A stretch of 64,000 nt of DNA from an uncultured bacterium (lineage in GTDB: Bacteria; Actinomycetota; Acidimicrobiia; Spongiisociales; UBA5794): contig CAVZRA010000001.1 in assembly GCA_963777645.1 (NCBI GenBank), forward strand, positions 669-64,668, written 5' to 3'. Positions 8,325 through 61,063 of the stretch are shown piece after piece. Below the pieces are notes generated by a model that saw only the letters and a list, made by a program, of their open reading frames with translations, made no database searches and was not told where the DNA came from. Each line of letters starts with the position of its first letter. The first letter of the stretch is position 1. Both the position numbers and the translations under genes were made by a program.

Positions 8325-9113
8325 GTGGCCCGGTTTGAAGCGGGCGATGCCTGCCTCCTGTTCGATCGCAAAGGCCGTCGGTACTTGATCGAGTTGATTC
8401 CGGGAGCGGAGTTCCACCATCACCAGGGCAAGCTGCCCCACGACGAGATCATCGGGAGCGAGGAGGGTGTCACCCTCAAATCCTCGCTGGGACGCGCCCT
8501 GATCGTGGTCCGACCCCGTCTCGCCGACTTTGCGTTGAAGATGCCAAGAGGCGCCGCTGTTGTGTATCCGAAGGATACGGGCGCCATCATCGTCTGGGCC
8601 GACATCAAGCCTGGCAATGTCGTAGTGGAAGCCGGTACCGGATCCGGTGCCCTGACGATGGCGCTGTCACGGGCGGTTGGTGACTCAGGGAAGGTCATCA
8701 CCTTCGAGGTCCGCGAGGACCATGCAGCCCTTGCGGCGAAGCGAATTAGCGGTTTCTTCGGGTCCATCCCCGAAAACGTCGATCTGCGACTTGGATCTGT
8801 GGAGAGCGGTCTCGAAGACCTTGCCCCTGATCGGGTCGTCCTCGACCTACCTGAGCCATGGCACTCTGTGCCGCTGGCTGCCCGGAATCTGGCGCCGGGC
8901 GGGATCTTCTGCTGCTACCTACCGACTGTGCCGCAAGTGCAAACCGTACGAGAGGCGATATCCGAATCGCGGAGCTTCCTCGATGTCATGACCTTCGAGA
9001 TGATGATGCGGGAGTGGTCGGTCGACGGGCGCTCGGTGCGGCCGAGCCACCGGATGATCGGTCACACCGGTTTCATAACAATCGCCCGCAAGCGGGAGCC
9101 TGCGGGCGATTGA
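8325..9113 (+). CDS. trmI: tRNA (adenine(58)-N1)-methyltransferase
   Basis: MPRGAAVVYPKD, EAGTGSGAL, LDLPEPW, SVRPSHRMIGHTGF; usual position upstream of arc. Confidence 0.92.
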   Translation: MARFEAGDACLLFDRKGRRYLIELIPGAEFHHHQGKLPHDEIIGSEEGVTLKSSLGRALIVVRPRLADFALKMPRGAAVVYPKDTGAIIVWADIKPGNVVVEAGTGSGALTMALSRAVGDSGKVITFEVREDHAALAAKRISGFFGSIPENVDLRLGSVESGLEDLAPDRVVLDLPEPWHSVPLAARNLAPGGIFCCYLPTVPQVQTVREAISESRSFLDVMTFEMMMREWSVDGRSVRPSHRMIGHTGFITIARKREPAGD

Positions 9114-50961: not shown

Positions 50962-51038
50962 CGGGCTGTGGCGCAGCTTGGCAGCGCGCTTGACTGGGGG
51001 TCAAGAGGTCGCCGGTTCAAATCCGGCCAGCCCGACCA
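50962..51038 (+). tRNA. tRNA-Pro(GGG)
   Basis: Cloverleaf CGGGCTG...CAGCCCG-ACCA; anticodon arm CTTGA-CTGGGGG-TCAAG; T-loop GGTTCAAATCC; encoded CCA. Confidence 0.97.
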
Positions 51039-51440: not shown

Positions 51441-54392
51441 ATGGAGAGCGCGCGTAAGGCCCTTCGCCGCCTAGACGCCCCAAGGAGGTCGGCATCGCTG
51501 GTAAGCAGGCTGCTGGGTAAGGCTTGGTCTGCGACAGGACGACCTTGGGTACTCCCCGTGATTGCATCAGTAGGTGTGGGCCTCCTGCAGGCAGGAGGAT
51601 CTGGACATGCACCCCTAGCCGTCTTTCATGATGCGGAGCGGTCTCGTGAACTCCTCGGGATACTGTGGCAGGTGGAAGGGGCGACTGTCGCGCTCGTGCT
51701 TGCCGCGTCGTTGTTCGCTTTTGAGAGTCTGTCTCGCCAGCGGTCCAACGTGCCGCTTGTCGAATACGCAAATCGGTCTTGGCTTGCTCAGTTTCTGATG
51801 CTGGCAGCCTCGGGTCTAGTGGCAGTGCCGATCGTTCTGTTTGCGACACCGGATCTGCCTGCGCCCTCTGCATCGTTTGCCGCGGTACTAATTGGTGTTA
51901 GTGGATTGATGGCTCTTCCCTTCTTCTTCGCTAGGGCCATGAAGGTGGTTCAGCCGTCGTGGCTTCGAGGCGAGAGGCTTCGTGATATTCGGTACACGAC
52001 ACGAGCACTCGTTGACAAGGAATCACTTGAGCGAGCAGCCCTTCTTGAGTTGCGGCGATGGGCTGAAAGCTGCCAGGTCGAGGTGCTTCATCGCATGGTG
52101 ATCGATGGTGATCGCGTAACGGAGGTCTCGCCAGCAGCCGGTGTTGTCCTGGATTTGGACCTCGATCGGATTGAGCCGATTGCCAAGGCTCACCCTGATG
52201 AGGTCGTGGTCGCCACACGATTGATGGAAGAAGTCTGGGGTGCTGCGCCTCTGCTTGGACGAATGCAGCCGGCAACGCCCACGCACGAGCGACGGGCAGT
52301 CACGGTTTCTCGTCACGCTCCCACGGACAAGATGGATCAGCTGGTTGAGGATCTGCACGAAGAGGGTCTCGAGGCGGTTCGCAGTGGATCGCCAGCTGCG
52401 GCCGAGCAGGTGGCAGCAATGTATGGCGAGGTTTGGCTCGCATGGCCGAAGGCGTGGGCCGAGTACGGCCAGAGACTGCAAGGAGGGCTCATCGAAGGTG
52501 TTGAGCCATTCAGGATCAAACCTACCGATCGGCTCAGGAGGAATATCGCAACGACCATCGGCCGGTCTGTCGACCAGGGTCTGAGCGATCATGTGCACGC
52601 TTTCGCGGGGATCCTCTACACCGTGGGCTTTGATGCCATTCGCCTTCAGGCGTATGACCTCGTCAAGGAAATGAACACGTTGGCTCGTTGGCTTTTCAGC
52701 ATCGAATCCTCGGCATATCCGGCTGTTGCGGACGTTGTTGCTGAAGCCGCCTGGCGTTTTCAGATTGAACTCTGCGAGTTTGCGGGACGCGAGTTGGAGA
52801 TGAATCGGGCTGACCTATCCAGTGTTGAAGAGGCGAGGGAGCCGATTGGCCAGTGCTTCCGGAGCATCGTTGAATCACTAAGGCAGCTCTTCGATGGGGG
52901 CAAGTTCGAGCTATTTCGATCCCTTGACCACCGATTTCAACGAATCCTCGCTCATTGGGATCCGACTCGCGGTGAGCCGCTTGCAGACCTGATCCTGCAC
53001 GATCCGGAACGGTTTGGCGCTGACGACGAGAGGGTGGCAGGCGCGCATGAAGCTCTGAGCATGGCTGCGGTGAAGCGTGAACTCGAGCAACAGCGCCGCG
53101 CTGGACGCCTGTCCGTACTCGGTTGGATTCTGCGGCAGAAGCGTAGCCATGCGATCGGCGAGGACGAGATCATCTTGATCCGGAATCTGTCTGGGACTCT
53201 TGGTTCTGTGCCGGATCTGGTGCACACGACCGGTGTATCGCTGGCAGACGCTCACGACACATTGTCCCATTGGATCATGTTGGAGCGACCAGAGCTCGAA
53301 GTGGGCTTTGTAGATACCGATGGACCAATCCTCAAGGCCTTCGCTCACTCCCTCTTGAGTCGGCCCTCTGTGGATGAGATCCCCGCTGCGAGTTGGATCA
53401 ATAGCAATCACGTTTCCCGGTTGAACGAGATCCTTGACGAACTCGCAGATTGGAGCGAGCTCTGGCGGAGATTGGGAGAGTCAGAGGGCGACGTCTCGGA
53501 GCGTGCTGAGCTACTCAAGAGTCTTCTTCAATCCGCCCTCGATCGGCAAGTAGCTAGAGAGCACCAGGAACTCGCGGAGCAGGAGCTTGATGCCGAGAAG
53601 GTAGAGGAGTTCGTTTCCACCGTGGTCCGCAGCTGGATGGAGCATCGTTTGCTCCCAGAGTTCGCTCGCCTCAGTGGCTTAGGCATCACGGAGATCCGTG
53701 TCGAGGAGTGGACGGGGCCAACATTCGGGTTCAAACCGATGCTGGATCCGAAGGGCCTATTCGTGTCTCCCACAAACTGGGTCGGACTCGACCACGTTGC
53801 TGACGACAGGGGGCGGGTTCTCGCACAGGGCGAGGTGACAGCGATTGTGGAGTTGGCGACTGTTCATGCTCGCGAAGTCGCCTCTGGCGGTGAACCGAGC
53901 GAGCGGTTGTCGAGCCTATTGGAACAGCTCCGCGTTGACGGTTTCAATCCGAGTCTCATAGTTGTGCCAATTGACTGGAGGCTCGCTGACTCGCTCGGTC
54001 TTGATGACCATAATCGGCATCGGCGGGGCGTTGGCTTAGGTCGCAACTTCCAAGGGCGACACGACGGTGTTCCAGTGATTGACTGGTGGGATGTACCGTC
54101 CGGTCGCGCATTTGCTATGGACATGAGCCAATTCTGTGAGGTCATAGACGGCGTAGCCGGTCCCGGGGAGTCCTCGCCGCCAAACGTCGCTGTTGAACCA
54201 ATCGACGGCCGCCGCGCCGATGAAATCATTGCCCGATGGGAGGACGAATCGATTCCTGAGTCCGATCAGGTCCCAAGACACGAGTTGCTAACGAGCGTAC
54301 GAATCGACATTCGCCGCCCTTACGAGGTGCGTCTCCGAAGTTCGGCAGCCGTACGCTCCATTGTCTTGGCCGACGAGGAACCGAGCGTGTAG
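51441..54392 (+). CDS. Large hypothetical membrane protein: about 4 N-terminal TM helices, helical middle, possible HK97-like C-terminal domain
   Basis: Intact 983-aa ORF; hydrophobic segments in residues ~30-165; no family recognised with certainty. Confidence 0.75.
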   Translation: MESARKALRRLDAPRRSASLVSRLLGKAWSATGRPWVLPVIASVGVGLLQAGGSGHAPLAVFHDAERSRELLGILWQVEGATVALVLAASLFAFESLSRQRSNVPLVEYANRSWLAQFLMLAASGLVAVPIVLFATPDLPAPSASFAAVLIGVSGLMALPFFFARAMKVVQPSWLRGERLRDIRYTTRALVDKESLERAALLELRRWAESCQVEVLHRMVIDGDRVTEVSPAAGVVLDLDLDRIEPIAKAHPDEVVVATRLMEEVWGAAPLLGRMQPATPTHERRAVTVSRHAPTDKMDQLVEDLHEEGLEAVRSGSPAAAEQVAAMYGEVWLAWPKAWAEYGQRLQGGLIEGVEPFRIKPTDRLRRNIATTIGRSVDQGLSDHVHAFAGILYTVGFDAIRLQAYDLVKEMNTLARWLFSIESSAYPAVADVVAEAAWRFQIELCEFAGRELEMNRADLSSVEEAREPIGQCFRSIVESLRQLFDGGKFELFRSLDHRFQRILAHWDPTRGEPLADLILHDPERFGADDERVAGAHEALSMAAVKRELEQQRRAGRLSVLGWILRQKRSHAIGEDEIILIRNLSGTLGSVPDLVHTTGVSLADAHDTLSHWIMLERPELEVGFVDTDGPILKAFAHSLLSRPSVDEIPAASWINSNHVSRLNEILDELADWSELWRRLGESEGDVSERAELLKSLLQSALDRQVAREHQELAEQELDAEKVEEFVSTVVRSWMEHRLLPEFARLSGLGITEIRVEEWTGPTFGFKPMLDPKGLFVSPTNWVGLDHVADDRGRVLAQGEVTAIVELATVHAREVASGGEPSERLSSLLEQLRVDGFNPSLIVVPIDWRLADSLGLDDHNRHRRGVGLGRNFQGRHDGVPVIDWWDVPSGRAFAMDMSQFCEVIDGVAGPGESSPPNVAVEPIDGRRADEIIARWEDESIPESDQVPRHELLTSVRIDIRRPYEVRLRSSAAVRSIVLADEEPSV

Positions 54393-54648: not shown

Positions 54649-55775
54649 CTACATCGATAGATCGGCGTGGGAACCAGAGGGCCGCGCATCCGTTTTCGCC
54701 ACGATCCCAGAAAAGGCTGCATCGAGACGGTCGGCAGCGGCCTCGTCGAGACCTTCGAACAGATGCCCGTAGGTGTCCAGCGTGACCTGAATCGACGAGT
54801 GCCCGAGCCGGAGTTGGATGACCTTCGGGTGCTCGCCCTGGGCGATCAGCATCGCCGCATGGGTATGCCTCAGGTCATGAAACCGCAGCGGCTCGCCCAC
54901 CGAGGACGCGAACAGCCGGTAGCCAGTTCCGTGTCCTGAAGTTGGTGCGTCGCATCGGGCCGCCCTCGGAGGCGGTGAACACGAAGCCGTCGGCAGCGGG
55001 TGGCCACTGGGCGAGATGCCGGCTGAGCTCGTCGGCGAGGAAGCGGGGGAGCGCCACCTGACGGCGTGCAGCCGCCGTCTTGGGAGGCGCCAATGCCACG
55101 TGCCCGCGAATGTCGGTGAGCGTCTCAGCGACCGTCAGGCTTCGTCTGAGGAGATCGAGGCGATGTATCCGCAGACCGGCAAGCTCACCAAACCGGCAGC
55201 CGGTGTAGGCGGCGGTGAGAACCAGGGCACGGTAGGGAGCGTCGATGGCGTCGGCGACCTGGGCGACCTGCTCGGCGTTGAGGAAACGCATCTCGGTGTG
55301 GCGTCTGTGGAGGCAGCTTGATGCCCCGGCAAGGTGTGCGGGCGATCAGATCCGAATCGAGCGCGGAGGAGAACAACCCGGCAACTATCAAGTAGGCGAT
55401 CCGGATTGTCGACGGTGACAAGCCCTTCTCCTCGAGATGGGCGACGAATCCCTGGATGTCCGTTGGCACAACCGAGTCGAGCCGGCGATCGCCGAAGTAG
55501 GGGAGCACATGGTTGCGCAGCAGCGACTCGGTGCCTACCCGCGTCGACGGACGCAGGTGAACGCGGCTCGCCTCCCACGTCGGCCGCCACTCCGAGACGG
55601 TGATCTTGCCCAGCCGAGGATCGGTCCAGGTCCCGCGCAGCTTGTCGGCCTCGACGGTGACGAGGAAGTTCTCGGCGTCGACCTTGCGACGGAAGGTGCG
55701 GGCTCGCTCCCTGTTGGACGGGTCCCGGTAGCGGACCTGCCATTGCCCTGGGCCCTTCTTCCGGATATGCGCCAT
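54649..55775 (-). CDS. Phage-type tyrosine integrase (frameshifts near 55300 and 54900)
   Basis: WQVRYRDP arm-binding N-terminus; AYTGCRFGELAGL, PKT, FHDLRHTHA, LGHSSIQVTLDTYGHL over three frames. Confidence 0.88.
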
Positions 55776-55867
55776 GCTCAGCTCCTTCCGCGGTCACCTC
55801 CCGAAGTCATAGCAGACAGCGACGACGTACCTCAGACGCTGTGCCTGTGGAATTGTCACTCTGCAAC

Positions 55868-55902
55868 CTTTGATCAGAGTCTCATAGACCCTCTGATCAA
55901 AG
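55868..55902 (+). repeat. Palindromic site, copy 1 (12-bp arms, 11-bp asymmetric core)
   Basis: CTTTGATCAGAG-TCTCATAGACC-CTCTGATCAAAG. Confidence 0.8.
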
Positions 55903-55993
55903 TCGCATTCGGGCATCAATACATGTCGACATCGTCTCGGCGCATGGCCGCTCATACAGTTACAGGAAAGGCCGTGCCCTAACATCCGTCTGG

Positions 55994-57400
55994 ATGCTGC
56001 TCACAATCACGTCTACGACGGCGCCGGCAAGGGACCTCGGTCTCATCCTGCACAAGCACCCCGATCGGGTGCAGGACTTCTCTCTTCCGTTTGGACGGGC
56101 GCACGTCTTCTACCCGGAGGCGACGGACGGGAGGACGACGGTGGCGCTCCTCGTGGAAATCGATCCGGTGGCCCTTGTGAAACGGCGAGGACGAGATCTG
56201 GTCCTCAACGACTATGTGAACGACCGGCCGTACGTGGCGTCGTCCTTCCTGAGCGTCGCGATCGCCAGAGTGTTCGGCTCGGCGCTACGCGGGAAGTCGG
56301 AAGGGCACGAGGATCTAGTTGACCGGCCACTCTCGATCACAGCACGGCTGGCGACCGTCGCCAGCTACGACGGCGAGGAAGCCCTTCACCGACTGTTTGA
56401 ACCACTCGGCTACGAAGTCAATGCAGCCGCGCACCCGCTCAACGAACGGTTCCCATCGTGGGGCAACAGTCCCTACTACACGTTGACGCTCCACGGCGAG
56501 GTTCCCGTCAAGAGTCTGCTCGGTCACCTATATGTCCTGCTGCCGGTCCTCGACGGAACCAAGCACTACTGGGTAGACGAGAGCGAAATCGAGAAGCTTC
56601 TCCGTGCCGGAGAGGAATGGCTCAGCGATCATCCCGAGCGTGAAGTCATCACCCGCCGGTACCTGAAGGGGCAGAGGTCGCTCACGGACGCGGCGCTCGG
56701 ACGGCTAATGGCCGAGGATGTCGGCCTAGTCGACAACCAGGACGAAGACGACCCAGTTGATGACGATGCTCGGGTACCGCTCAACCGGCAACGCATCGAT
56801 GCTGCCGTCGGCGAGCTGAAGAGGCTAGGCGCAAGGCGCATTCTCGACCTTGGCTGTGGTGAAGGTCGCTTGATCTCCGAGTTGCTCCGCGATCCTGCCA
56901 CGACTCAGGTCACGGGGATGGACGTATCGATGGCGACTCTCCACAAGGCAGCCCGCCGGCTTCGACTCGATGAGATGTCGCACCGGCAGCGAGAACGAGT
57001 CGACCTTATCCAGGGTTCGCTCACCTACCGCGACCGACGCCTCAGCGGCTTCGACGCTGCGGCCATTGTCGAAGTGATCGAGCACCTCGACCCGTGGCAG
57101 CTCGGACCATTCGAGCGCGTCGTCTTCGGTGAGGCCCGCCCCGGCGCGGTTGTGCTGACAACGCCCAACGCCGAATACAACGTGCAATACGAACACCTGG
57201 CCGATGGATCGCATCGTCATCTCGACCATCGATTCGAATGGACTCGAGCTGAGTTCTCCGAGTGGGCCGCCGGAGTCGCAGAGCGGAACGGATACGCGGT
57301 CGAGATCTCCGGTATCGGCGAGGCGTCCGAGGACACGGGAACCCCAACCCAGATGGCAGTGTTCACGCTCAGCGGAAGCGGCGAGGAAGAGCAGCGATGA
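55994..57400 (+). CDS. hen1: 3'-terminal RNA ribose 2'-O-methyltransferase Hen1
   Basis: DLG..LHKHPDR.Q.F.L.FG.AHVFYPEA, YVNDRPY, LDLGCGEG, EVIEH, TTPN.EYN, HRHLDHRFEW. Confidence 0.95.
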   Translation: MLLTITSTTAPARDLGLILHKHPDRVQDFSLPFGRAHVFYPEATDGRTTVALLVEIDPVALVKRRGRDLVLNDYVNDRPYVASSFLSVAIARVFGSALRGKSEGHEDLVDRPLSITARLATVASYDGEEALHRLFEPLGYEVNAAAHPLNERFPSWGNSPYYTLTLHGEVPVKSLLGHLYVLLPVLDGTKHYWVDESEIEKLLRAGEEWLSDHPEREVITRRYLKGQRSLTDAALGRLMAEDVGLVDNQDEDDPVDDDARVPLNRQRIDAAVGELKRLGARRILDLGCGEGRLISELLRDPATTQVTGMDVSMATLHKAARRLRLDEMSHRQRERVDLIQGSLTYRDRRLSGFDAAAIVEVIEHLDPWQLGPFERVVFGEARPGAVVLTTPNAEYNVQYEHLADGSHRHLDHRFEWTRAEFSEWAAGVAERNGYAVEISGIGEASEDTGTPTQMAVFTLSGSGEEEQR

Positions 57401-59924
57401 CCAATATCGAGATCCCCGAGCTTTGCGTCGTCGCTCTTGTCGGCGCGAGTGGTTCCGGCAAGTCGACGTTTGCTGCGGACCATTTCCTGCCCACCGAAGT
57501 GCTGTCGTCGGACTTCTTCCGGGGACTGATCGCCGACGATGAGAACGATCTCGCCGCCACCGGCGATGCCTTCGACGCCCTGTACTACGTGGCGGCCAAG
57601 CGTCTGCGCGGGGGACGACTCACCGTCGTCGACGCGACCAACGTGCAGAAGCCAGACCGGAAGCAGATCGTCGAATTGCCCGAGACAACGACTGCCTCGC
57701 CGTTGCCATCGTGCTCAACCTTCCTGAGCAGATCTGCATCGAGCGCAACGAGTCCCGCTCCGATCGGCAGATCCCGCGACGGGCCATCGCCAGGCAAGTC
57801 AAGAATCTTCAACGATCACTGCGACACCTCCGGAGAGAGGGCTTCCGATACGTCTACGTCCTCAACAACCCCGAAGACGTCGCCTCGGCGGAGATCGCCC
57901 GGCAGAAGCTGTGGGTCGACAAACGAGACGATTCAGGGCCGTTCGACATCATCGGTGACATCCATGGATGCTTCGACGAACTGGTCGAACTCCTGGAGCG
58001 ACTCGACTACACCGTGGATCGGTCAACCCTCACGGTAGCCCACCGGAGGGACGCAAGGCCGTGTTTCTCGGCGATCTTGTCGATCGAGGACCGAACACGC
58101 CGAACGTCGTTCGCCTGGTCCAAGGGATGGTCGAGGCCGGTACCGCTCTCTGTGTCACCGGCAACCATGAGAACAAACTCGTTCGCAAGCTGTCGGGGCG
58201 CGACGTACAAATGACGCACGGCCTCCCCGAGACCATGGCGCAACTAGAAGGCGAATCCGAGCAATCCCTCGAAGACCTCCGAGGACTTCCTCGACGGACT
58301 GCTCAGCCACTACGTCCTGGACGGCGGCAAGCTGGTGGTGGCGCACGCCGGTCTCCCGGCCGAATACCACGGACGGGCCTCGGGGCGGGTCCGGAACTCG
58401 CCCTCTACGGGGAGACCACCGGCGAACAGACGAGTACGGCCTGCCGGTCCGCTACGACTGGGCGTCCGACTACCGGGGTGACTGCCATGGTCGTCTACGG
58501 CCATACTCCCGTTCCCGAAGCCGAGTGGGTGAACCGCACAATCTGCATCGACACGGGTGCGTCTTCGGCGGGAAACTCACCGCTCTCCGCTATCCCGAGA
58601 ACGAATCTCGTCTCGGTCGATGCGGCCAAGGTCTACTACGAGCCGGTGCGTCCGCTCGACAGCCAAACCGAACGCGGCGATCTGTTGGATATCACGGATG
58701 TAACCGGGAAACGGATCGTGGAAACGTCGCTCGGCGGGCCGGATCACCATCCCCGAGGAGAACTCGGCTGCCGCCCTCGAGATCATGAGCCGCTACGCGG
58801 CAGATCCCCATTGGATCATCTACCTTCCCCCGACCATGTCGCCCGCGGAGACTTCAGAGCAGGATGGATTCCTCGAGCATCCCGACGAAGCGTTCGACTA
58901 CTACTTAAAGCACGGAGTGGATCGGGTCGTCTGCGAAGCCAAGCACATGGGTTCCCGTGCAATCGTCATCGTCGACCCGGGATGCCCAGAGCGCAGCCGA
59001 ACGCTTCAAGGCTGCGGACGGCGCAACCGGGGCGGTCCTCACCCGAACCGGACGGCCCTTCTTCGACACGGGAGAGGCGACCGAGGAAGTGATTGACGAG
59101 ATCCGTGACGCGGTCACCGCGGCGGGACTGTGGGATGAGCTCAAGACCGACTGGCTCTGTTTTGATGCCGAGCTCATGCCATGGAACGCCAAAGGGGCAG
59201 ACCTCGTCATCGGCCAGTACGCACCGGTTGGGTCGGCGGCCAGATGATGTTCGCCGAAACCAACGCCGTGCTGGATCAGGCCTCGAGCCGGCTGGACGTA
59301 GCCGACCTCAGCAGCAGATACCACCGGCGGGCGAGAGCAGCCGACGCATACGTCGACGCCTACAGCAACTACTGCTGGGACGTAGCGAGCATGAGGGATC
59401 TCCGACTCGCCCCGTTCCAATTGCTCGCCAGCGAAGGACGGACCTACTTCGACCGGGACCACGTCTGGCACATGAACACCCTTGCCCGGTTAGCTGACGA
59501 CGACAACGGAGGGCTCCTGACAGCGACTCCATTCCTCGAGATCGATCCCACCGACCCAGCCGGTCGCGCCGAGGCGACCACTTGGTGGGAGACCATGACG
59601 GCCGATGGAGGCGAGGGCATGGTCGTCAAGCCGAGGAATCCGATCACGAGAGATCGCAAGGGACACATCGTGCAGCCCGGCATCAAGTGCCGAGGACGCG
59701 AGTACCTTCGCATCATCTACGGCATCGACTACGACGCACCCGAGACCATCGAAGCTCTCCGCACCCGCAACTTGCAGCGCAAACGAGCCATGGCCCGCCG
59801 TGAGTTCGTCCTCGGCATCGAGGCACTGGAACGATTCGTCACCGGCGAACCGCTGTACCGGGTCCATGAGGCCGTGTTCGGGGTGCTGGCGATCGAGAGT
59901 GAACCTGTCGATCCTCGTTTGTAG
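57397..59924 (+). CDS. pnkp: Bacterial polynucleotide kinase-phosphatase-ligase Pnkp (several frameshifts)
   Basis: Kinase GASGSGKST and DATN; phosphatase IIGDIHGC, GDLVDRGP, GNHE, YGHTP; ligase KHMGSR, EGMVVKP; C-terminal ESEPVDPRL; ATGA overlap with hen1. Confidence 0.92.
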
Positions 59925-59983
59925 CGGCTTGCATCTAGGGGGACTGCGGGCGGTCTCTTCTTGGGGATTGTCGCTAGGAATCC

Positions 59984-60016
59984 TCTGATAAGAGTCTCAT
60001 AGACCCTCCGATCAGA
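59984..60016 (+). repeat. Palindromic site, copy 2 (same orientation as copy 1)
   Basis: TCTGATAAGAG-TCTCATAGACC-CTCCGATCAGA; 27/29 identity between 55871-55899 and 59986-60014. Confidence 0.8.
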
Positions 60017-60430
60017 ATCTCAGAGCCCGAGAATGGGTCGCGAACCTCGGGGGTTCGGCCGGCTGTACGCCCATCGGGATCGGCGCAGCAGCTGCGGCGC
60101 GCGACCGAACTCACGCAGTCCAGCGGCCGCAGGGCGCACGGTCAGCCCTCGGTCTCGGGGGATTTCTCAGCTTCTAGCGGCGAACTCGTCCCTTAACCGC
60201 CCGGAATGAGACTCCAGTGAGAGGATCCGCCCACATCATGAGCCTCGTAGGCAGCCGAGGAGGAGAAGCTCCATGTCAGCGCAACAATCCGTAGCCCAAA
60301 GCTTCGCCGATGGCACTTCTGAGACCGCGATCACGATTCGCGCCGCACCCCTCTCAACACCACACGCACGTGCAACAAGTTGCTCGGGGTCAACTGGTTA
60401 ACCGGGGAGGTGCGGTGATGGCATTGGATC

Positions 60431-60939
60431 GTGGCAGGCTGGCGAAGAATCGACAGGCGGTTGTTGGCCGAGCTAGACCATGGCGATGGACCGCAGACGG
60501 TGAAGGTTCCCCTGTCCGACGCGGCGTGGTCGACATGGCGGCGCCATTGCGGCGTAATCGGTCTGACCATGGGGGAAGGAATCGCCGTGCTCATCGATGG
60601 CGAACTGGCCACGGTCGTCGATGACGGTGGCAACGAGACTGCTGCGGTGTTGGCGATTCGGGCTGCGGAGCAGCTGGCTGTCCGTGAGGGTGAGGTCGCG
60701 GTTCGGGAACGCCACGTCGGGGCGGTCGAAGAGAGGCAGCGGGCTTGGGGCGAGCGCCTTCGCCAGTGGGAGGCTGAACTCAAGGTCAGGCAGGTGCGGG
60801 TAGAAGATGCATCGAAGTCGGTACTGGGTCAGAGCGACAGCTTCGCGAAGGTCGGGAGGAATGACCGCTGTCCGTGCGGGTCCGGCTCAAGTACAAGCAC
60901 TGTCACGGCCTGCCCCAACGTTCGCCTGCCGCGACGTAG
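60431..60939 (+). CDS. SEC-C metal-binding motif protein with coiled coil (frameshift near 60887)
   Basis: KVGRNDRCPCGSG, then KYKHCHG in the shifted frame. Confidence 0.65.
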
Positions 60940-61063
60940 CGGAGTTCTACAGGTTGATGAGAGGGCAGGCATCGTCGGGACCACGGATGCAGGCAACCTG
61001 GGATCTCGGGCTGTTGCGGTGATGAATCGCAATCGTGTCACAGGAATCTGAGCCTGTTGGCGA

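Follow-up and report, generated by a model that had tools for sequence, protein, structure and literature searches.

Phased-repeat arrays bracket an inserted hen1-pnkp operon in the control region of a putative tRNA-Pro island

We analyzed a contiguous stretch of 64,000 nucleotides (nt), referred to here as the window, from an uncultured bacterium of the class Acidimicrobiia (UBA5794; assembly GCA_963777645.1, contig CAVZRA010000001.1), in which the RNA-repair genes hen1 and pnkp are located between two direct copies of a short site, next to a divergently oriented tyrosine integrase gene. The two genes have been inserted between this integrase gene and a conserved gene, here called div, and the site has been duplicated around them. 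The site itself is an array of phased short repeats that recurs across the bacterial family, and the crossover sites of the integrases are found elsewhere, in tRNA genes. The window is best read as containing an island of approximately 13.7 kb at a tRNA-Pro gene, one of a family of small islands that integrate at tRNA genes in this bacterial family. We lean towards the view that the arrays are protein-binding regulatory sites, and that they were duplicated around the RNA-repair cargo when it was captured by recombination between two arrays.

A repeat search of the window identified a direct-repeat family of 59 nt, with copies at 55849-55907 and 59964-60022 that are 80% identical and start 4115 bp apart. 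The initial annotation had reported two direct copies at this distance bracketing hen1-pnkp, and this was borne out: its 27-mer matched at 55872-55898 with no mismatches, at 59987-60013 with two mismatches and nowhere else in the window, and the two matches were not found together in any of 100 shuffles. The center of the site, the 18-mer AGAGTCTCATAGACCCTC, shows no difference between the copies, and the arms around it are more diverged, with mismatches at 8 of 27 positions to the left and at 4 of 14 to the right. Both copies carry a rare TAGACCC variant of the spacer. The earlier distances to the flanking genes were right to within 1-2 nt. Thus, 92 nt lie between the ATG end of the divergent integrase gene (55775) and the start of site 1 (55868), 90 nt between the end of site 1 (55903) and the ATG of hen1 (55994), and 58 nt between the stop codon of pnkp (59922-59924) and the start of site 2 (59983). 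Consensus scans for promoters and terminators in both site regions returned no sites, and a search of 55700-60600 against Rfam gave no matches at E-values up to 1.

Comparison with other loci confirmed that the pair of genes is an insertion. The initial annotation had predicted empty single-site loci without the cargo, and five such loci were found in the genome of the window (G000), each with an integrase gene, a single site, approximately 400 bp and div. A multiple alignment showed that site 2 and the following 430 bp correspond to the whole integrase-div intergenic region of five sister loci, where the order is site, approximately 200 variable bp, a single inverted array unit, a ribosome-binding site with a 42-codon open reading frame (ORF), a conserved nucleotide block and div. 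Site 1 shares just 59 nt with these loci. The distance from the integrase start to the core of the block is 4576 bp in the window, and taking out one period of 4115 bp leaves 461 bp and thereby restores the normal spacing, which is 435, 442 and 457 bp in the sister islands C3c, C3a and C12, respectively. Two islands from other genera, whose integrase genes share 79% nucleotide identity with that of the window, lack hen1, and their integrase start is separated from the block homology by 511 and 542 bp. Site 1 stands at the normal distance from the integrase start, and site 2 at the normal distance from the block and from the inverted unit (60206-60226, reverse strand), which was recognized by inverted-repeat search, by alignment and by a unit scan of seven islands, and normally accompanies the direct array, as it does in all sister islands. 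The inserted segment of 4115 bp thus consists of hen1-pnkp, approximately 106 bp of flanks and one extra copy of the array. Long spacers between integrase and div were also seen at four other loci (L062-L065), none of which has a duplicated array; the spacer of L063 holds insertion-sequence genes and inverted repeats, and that of L065 has inverted repeats flanking segments of approximately 1.3 kb.

The junctions were compared with contigs from public sequencing runs. A contig of 1045 nt from run X2, approximately 92% alike, spans the integrase start, site 1 and hen1 (55714-56751), which indicates that the left junction is real and older than the split from that strain. The right junction is not bridged by the run pieces listed. 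A product joining approximately 60000 to approximately 55890, as proposed earlier for an excised form, was not seen in any of four public runs, which is a weak negative given that these runs offered only short, low-depth Logan contigs.

The first inserted gene, hen1 (55994-57400, forward strand), encodes an intact RNA 3'-terminal 2'-O-methyltransferase of 468 amino acids (aa), identified by the Pfam domain Hen1_L and by a score of 655 bits against the NCBIfam model TIGR04074 (cut-off 340). The second, pnkp (57397-59924, forward strand), overlaps hen1 by 4 nt and encodes a kinase, phosphatase and ligase protein, in which all three modules are recognizable from Pfam matches of its pieces to AAA_33, Metallophos and PNKP_ligase. 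It is 77.6% identical in nucleotides to the gene of locus L087, whose Pnkp is intact (840 aa; 1339 bits against TIGR04075). The nearest operons are those of L087 and L088, where Hen1 is 84% and 70% identical in amino acids, respectively. Homology to these operons begins at 55979 or 55973 and ends at 59917 or 59922; it covers the two genes only and therefore excludes both sites. No repeats flanking hen1-pnkp were found in either L087 or L088. In L087, a contig of 9.3 kb, the operon lies between two tyrosine integrase genes and beside an AbiEii-like gene; the downstream integrase gene there has its own excisionase gene and a different repeat of two 23-bp copies (8677-8722). A full-length Hen1 match was obtained in only one of 41 relatives, namely G000 itself, with the unpublished genome G027 counted among the negatives, and the other matches were to generic methyltransferase domains. 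In its settings in the window and in L087, the pair behaves as mobile, defense-associated cargo. Compared with the bacterial Pnkp-Hen1 RNA repair system (PMC3675462 and PMC4411300), the proteins are alike in having an equivalog Hen1 and the kinase, phosphatase and ligase modules of Pnkp; the difference is that the pair is here carried by a mobile island, as cargo alongside a short Argonaute system. In a literature search of main texts, no paper was found that connects Hen1-Pnkp to integrases or genomic islands. That the pair travels as island cargo beside short-Argonaute defense fits a role in ribotoxin or phage conflicts.

The site had originally been described as a pair of inverted arms around an asymmetric core that can fold as a hairpin. 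This holds for copy 1, which folded as DNA at -12.2 kcal/mol (z-score -5.6), but not for copy 2, which folded at shuffle level (z-score 0.03), nor for the homologous sites of two sister islands (z-scores -0.16 and 0.62). The palindrome and its hairpin are thus peculiar to copy 1 and are not conserved. The search for similar sites in the genome and its relatives, which the initial annotation had suggested, was successful and revealed that the conserved feature is instead a phased direct-repeat array. It is built from units of approximately 23 bp, each with two pentamers of the form T[C/G]T[C/G]A spaced 11-12 bp apart. Copy 1 (55849-55907, forward strand) has two such units with the phased pentamers TTTGA, TCTCA, TCTGA and TCGCA, and an additional TGTCA further to the left; copy 2 (59964-60022, forward strand) has the same array. 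The variant in island C5a consists of four phased TGTCA pentamers, with the palindrome entirely absent.

Arrays of this type are associated with integrase genes. A strict scan of G000, requiring at least four pentamers, identified three arrays, all upstream of integrases, and none in the reversed control. A looser scan of the whole genome identified related sites at C3:482.8k, C3:744.3k, C3:761.5k, C12:66.2k and C5:240.3k, and variant-form sites at C8:275.0k and C5:277.9k. At the first five, the site has a tyrosine integrase gene on one side, oriented divergently from div on the other, and at the two variant-form sites a TrwC-type relaxase gene takes the place of div (Pfam TrwC, E-value 3.6e-73, on C8). 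Across the family, the pattern TSTSA-N6-TSTSA-N7-TSTSA (S, C or G) gave 132 hits among the matches listed, distributed over 44 of 133 genomes, as compared to 6 hits for the backwards control, and nearly all three-pentamer matches fit one consensus. The C and G positions of the pentamers vary even inside single arrays. The locus of G058 has an integrase gene that is 79% identical, yet its units are of the TGTCA type. No informative co-variation was seen between the array and either Div or the integrase: the Div proteins of C3c and C5a are 88% identical, and their pentamers differ. A metagenome scan with the 18-mer returned 20 contigs, of which 17 represent unrelated low-GC contexts; the related ones are limited to L170 and a sequence present twice, as L168 and L172.

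A normal control region has one direct array of two to three units of approximately 23 bp. Each of the six other tRNA-integrating islands of G000 has one such array in the control region beside the integrase gene, and a single inverted unit at a distance of 150-225 bp. The array units were confined to the control region in all seven islands examined. Elsewhere in the family, pairs of arrays within one control region are common; inverted pairs are spaced by 130-470 bp and direct pairs by 250-330 bp. The distance from the array to the tRNA end is 1.3-1.7 kb in the six sister islands, whereas the window island has distances of 4.9 and 9.0 kb because of insertions.

The ends of the islands are defined by tRNA sequences. 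Seven loci of G000 have the integrase stop codon 15-73 bp away from a tRNA gene. In six of them, the sister islands, the 3' part of this tRNA gene, from the anticodon loop onwards, is repeated 4.1 to 24.9 kb away over 44-65 nt with 95.6-100% identity, and these repeats define both ends. In the window, a tRNA-Pro (GGG) gene predicted by ARAGORN at 50962-51038 (forward strand) is the probable integration target and the left end of the island. The putative far end is a repeat of the anticodon-loop region of this gene at G000:C1:65318-65334, just past the end of the window; as this repeat is only 17 nt long, the tRNA-bounded nature of the window island is weakly supported. No array unit was found within 300 bp of either end in any of the seven islands, and the tRNA 3' repeats are unrelated in sequence to the array. 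Since tRNA 3' repeats bound the islands and arrays are absent near the ends, we conclude that the crossover sites of the integrases are the tRNA repeats and not the arrays. The possibility that the arrays serve as arm-type sites of the attachment complex was considered and rejected for the same lack of units at the ends. At C3:481134-488213 and C3:760225-771508 in G000, further partial tRNA 3' repeats were observed beyond the first far end, one of them 93% alike (at 488171) and the other 23 nt long (at 771486), which suggests tandem or remnant islands at tRNA-Glu and tRNA-Val.

The integrase gene of the window (54649-55775, reverse strand) was identified by Pfam matches of its pieces to Phage_int_SAM_3 and Phage_integrase, domains that are also present in four relatives, and by tblastn to sister integrases. 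It is of the heterobivalent type of lambda and Tn916. In an AlphaFold model of a sister integrase, residues 3-8, 14-21 and 27-32 form strands and residues 35-51 a helix, with predicted local distance difference test (pLDDT) values of 80-91, so that this protein is predicted to have an arm-type N-terminal domain, a three-strand sheet and a helix, ahead of the core-binding and catalytic domains. Residues 1-60 were not assigned to any Pfam family. A Foldseek search with the model retrieved Tn1549 and full-length lambda Int with E-values from 6e-14 to 7e-11. Against the integron-integrase model TIGR02249, the sister integrase of C3c scored only 34.4 bits, as compared to the cut-off of 265, in agreement with the earlier statement that the enzyme is not IntI; the pieces of the window integrase matched general phage-integrase domains only. 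Some members of the family have a gene for an HTH_17 excisionase upstream of the integrase gene.

The backbone of the islands has the order tRNA, opposite-strand integrase, control region, small ORF with the conserved block, div and cargo, and the cargo is variable. The small ORF of 42 codons, recognized from its sequence and by alignment, has a ribosome-binding site and is located at 60273-60401 (forward strand); its 3' half is the nucleotide block, with a core at 60351-60376. The block (within 60318-60430 of the window) occurs once in each div-type island (at C3:483229, C3:744612, C3:761909, C5:240658 and C12:65786 in G000) and also, before a relaxase gene, at L172:3865. Its conservation greatly exceeds that of the genes on either side, with approximately 90% nucleotide conservation between islands whose Div proteins are approximately 50-60% identical. 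It is followed on its 3' side by a GCAAC..GTTGC stem and then, just before div, by a variable 6-bp inverted repeat whose arms change together between islands. The div gene of the window (60431-61051, forward strand) follows site 2 and was identified by tblastn (60449-60886) and alignment. Based on a structure model and a Pfam SEC-C match of a sister copy, Div has a strand-helix-helix part at the N-terminus, a long helix of the coiled-coil type and a SEC-C zinc motif; this motif is out of frame in the window assembly. The div family is present in 70 of 133 family genomes. No Foldseek match to the Div model was obtained at E-values up to 0.001, and the SEC-C tail weakly resembled the SecA C-terminus (E-value 0.63).

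The islands resemble tRNA-integrating genomic islands and actinomycete integrative elements with a heterobivalent tyrosine integrase (pSAM2-like layout). As in islands and elements of that kind, the integrase stop lies by the tRNA 3' end, the far end carries a direct repeat of the 3' part of the tRNA gene (44-65 nt), and the cargo is variable. They differ in having a family-conserved control region composed of phased arrays, an inverted unit, the block and a SEC-C protein, and the window differs further in that cargo has entered the control region and that the array is duplicated. Within the combinations of terms that were searched, no paper on such a control region was found. The analysis defines a conserved control module for these small islands, a widespread family that integrates at tRNA genes of uncultured high-GC bacteria and is as yet undescribed.

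The helical phasing of the pentamers, their conservation across very different integrases and their position between divergently oriented genes all point to protein binding, in a regulatory or assembly role. According to the reading that we favor, the arrays would be binding sites for one conserved DNA-binding protein with a function in regulation or nucleoprotein assembly, for which the arm-type N-terminal domain of the integrase, Div and a host factor are candidates, and hen1-pnkp would have come under the island's own control. One extra array together with the cargo, in direct copies, is the geometry left by recombination of a resident array with an array on a circular or sister molecule. 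The simplest form would be recombination of the resident array with a circle carrying an array and hen1-pnkp, or with a sister island, either on short homology or aided by the bound protein; a crossover by the integrase at the site would not be required. In the window, one array now faces the start regions of the integrase and hen1 genes, and the other has retained its position upstream of the small ORF and div. Short direct repeats spaced one helical turn apart between divergently oriented genes, including that of an integrase, are similarly found in phage switch and excision operators. The switch and excision proteins Cox of P2, Apl of 186 and Xis of lambda and L5 have phased-repeat operators or binding arrays of this kind. 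Unlike these, the arrays also occur in islands that have no excisionase gene beside that of the integrase, and there is no copy near the attachment sites. The initial annotation had offered an operator duplicated at insertion as its fallback, and this is closer to the evidence than a cassette.

Several points weigh against this reading. No binder of the arrays was identified, and with the empty promoter scans in both site regions, their role as operators rests on position. One cargo between direct copies, with an identical 18-nt center and diverged flanks, is equally the geometry that site-specific integration of a circle would leave. The perfect run of 18 nt is by itself not significant, with p approximately 0.15 at 20% divergence according to a rough estimate. 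Recombination by short homology over approximately 59 bp is inefficient, and array duplication at the kilobase scale was observed in two cases only, the window and L187, a locus in another genus. Finally, the arrays in front of TrwC relaxase genes (C8, C5b, L172 and L190) may serve transfer instead of, or besides, the control of transcription.

The initial annotation had preferred to see the site as a crossover site and the locus as an integron-like cassette. In that explanation, the arrays or their inner core are recombination sites for the neighboring integrase, array-bearing circles are captured and released, and hen1-pnkp is one cassette. The layout on which the comparison was based has stood up, with an inserted block, a duplicated site and an adjoining integrase gene. 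As in an integron, the gene of a tyrosine recombinase diverges from a site, beyond which come the cargo and a similar site in the same orientation. The identical center with its more diverged arms, and an inserted length of exactly one site-plus-cargo period that restores the backbone spacing when removed, are likewise as expected for a cassette, and L087 provides an example from another organism in which hen1-pnkp lies beside a related integrase. According to the structure model, the arm-type N-terminal domain could bind repeated sites. The mechanism, on the other hand, has not stood up, since the palindrome with its arm-core-arm design is seen in copy 1 only, and the demonstrable crossover sites are the 3' parts of tRNA genes, with a sequence unrelated to the array. 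Integrons differ in further respects: the integrases of the window family are of the lambda/Tn916 type with tRNA attachment sites of their own, and far below the cut-off for integron integrases (34 against 265 bits for the sister protein); the sites are phased direct-repeat arrays and not conserved hairpins such as attC; a single block of two genes makes up the cargo; and in relatives a single control region can hold arrays in both orientations, unlike arrays of attC. No multi-cassette arrays were found in the family-wide scan of 133 genomes, and no joined form in the weak data of the four runs. A second direct array pair around genes was observed in L187 (G136:C31, 5269-7760), where the integrase and excisionase genes are followed by array A, a leftward ORF, the inverted array B, a rightward ORF and array C. 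Arrays A and C are direct, 60 nt long, 93% alike and 2291 bp apart, and the three arrays alternate with two unknown ORFs of 249 and 226 aa, so that every intergenic region has an array. This locus keeps the cassette alive as an explanation, but an operator at each start region fits it better. Taken together, we regard a cassette system as unlikely. We would place the more general idea that the arrays are portable joints of gene capture in tRNA-integrating islands, with circles moved by the heterobivalent integrase or by array-bound proteins, at the same low level. If true, it would represent an independently evolved form of integron-like cassette exchange that shuffles defense and RNA-repair cargo between islands. 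The window is one clean case, with L187 as a second, of cargo between duplicated arrays, and makes array-mediated cargo exchange testable.

Two other explanations concern the arrays and the insertion separately. The arrays, the inverted unit and the block could together be a transfer origin or a region for relaxosome assembly, in integrative mobilizable or conjugative elements, to which Div or another accessory protein binds, with the duplication as a by-product of cargo insertion. This is suggested by the metagenome contig L172, in which the site, the inverted unit and the block directly precede the gene for a TrwC-type relaxase of 1059 aa, and by the arrays directly before TrwC relaxase genes in C8 and C5b of G000 and in L190. 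The high nucleotide conservation of the block relative to that of Div also speaks for a constraint at the DNA level. The origin of transfer (oriT) of R388 has an accessory protein, TrwA, besides the relaxase TrwC. The four related loci are comparable to it in having a repeat-bearing region directly upstream of TrwC-type relaxase genes. Yet no nick site could be recognized, the part of the window island that is seen contains no relaxase gene, a ribbon-helix-helix fold of Div found no support in the Foldseek search, and a search for the block in the two relaxase-type islands of G000, allowing up to 5 mismatches, was negative. We consider this explanation doubtful, while leaving it some weight. 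The insertion could, alternatively, say nothing about mechanism: two arrays may have pre-existed approximately 300 bp apart, and hen1-pnkp may have dropped between them by an unrelated illegitimate event. Direct pairs spaced 250-330 bp apart are present in at least nine genomes (G057, G058, G097, G101, G095, G103, G094, G013 and G129), and arrays of a single island are usually no less similar to each other than these two copies, at 80%. However, the sister islands of the same genome and genus have one direct array, the subtraction of one full period gives a normal backbone length, and both copies share the rare TAGACCC spacer. We therefore find such a coincidence very unlikely.

The window island also carries genes on both sides of the control region. 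An ORF of 983 aa (51441-54392, forward strand), taken from the ORF list, lies between the tRNA-Pro gene and the integrase gene, where the sister islands have nothing; it had no match in Pfam, NCBIfam or PADLOC. Downstream of div, PADLOC identified a short prokaryotic Argonaute (61064 to approximately 62450, reverse strand; pAgo_I, E-value 2.5e-85) and a SIR2-APAZ partner (approximately 62535 to beyond 64000, reverse strand; Aga_SIR2-PNTD, E-value 2.6e-26). This pair is in several frames in the assembly and, from the domain matches, looks like a SPARSA-type defense system carried as island cargo.

Frame breaks were also found in other genes of the island. Compared with L087 and L088, pnkp has 11 single-base indels and hen1 none that breaks the frame. 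Five of the 11 are contradicted by run contigs, near 57675-57678, 58482, 58554-58557, 58606 and 59240. The integrase gene reads in three frames, and contigs from runs X3 and X4 differ from it by one base at 54906, which is a frame break. Some pieces from run X1 are identical to the window over 200-270 nt. Based on these comparisons, the breaks in the integrase gene and pnkp are probably consensus errors or private to the assembly, and not signs of island decay. Further single-base indels were noted in the integrase gene and in div (approximately 60880), and this clustering suggests that the consensus errors are local and the assembly otherwise contiguous. Outside the island, weak motif-scan matches indicated a palindromic element containing CCCTCCC-GCTGGGAGGG, with three copies within 5 kb, at approximately 42004, 42170 and 47252 of the window.

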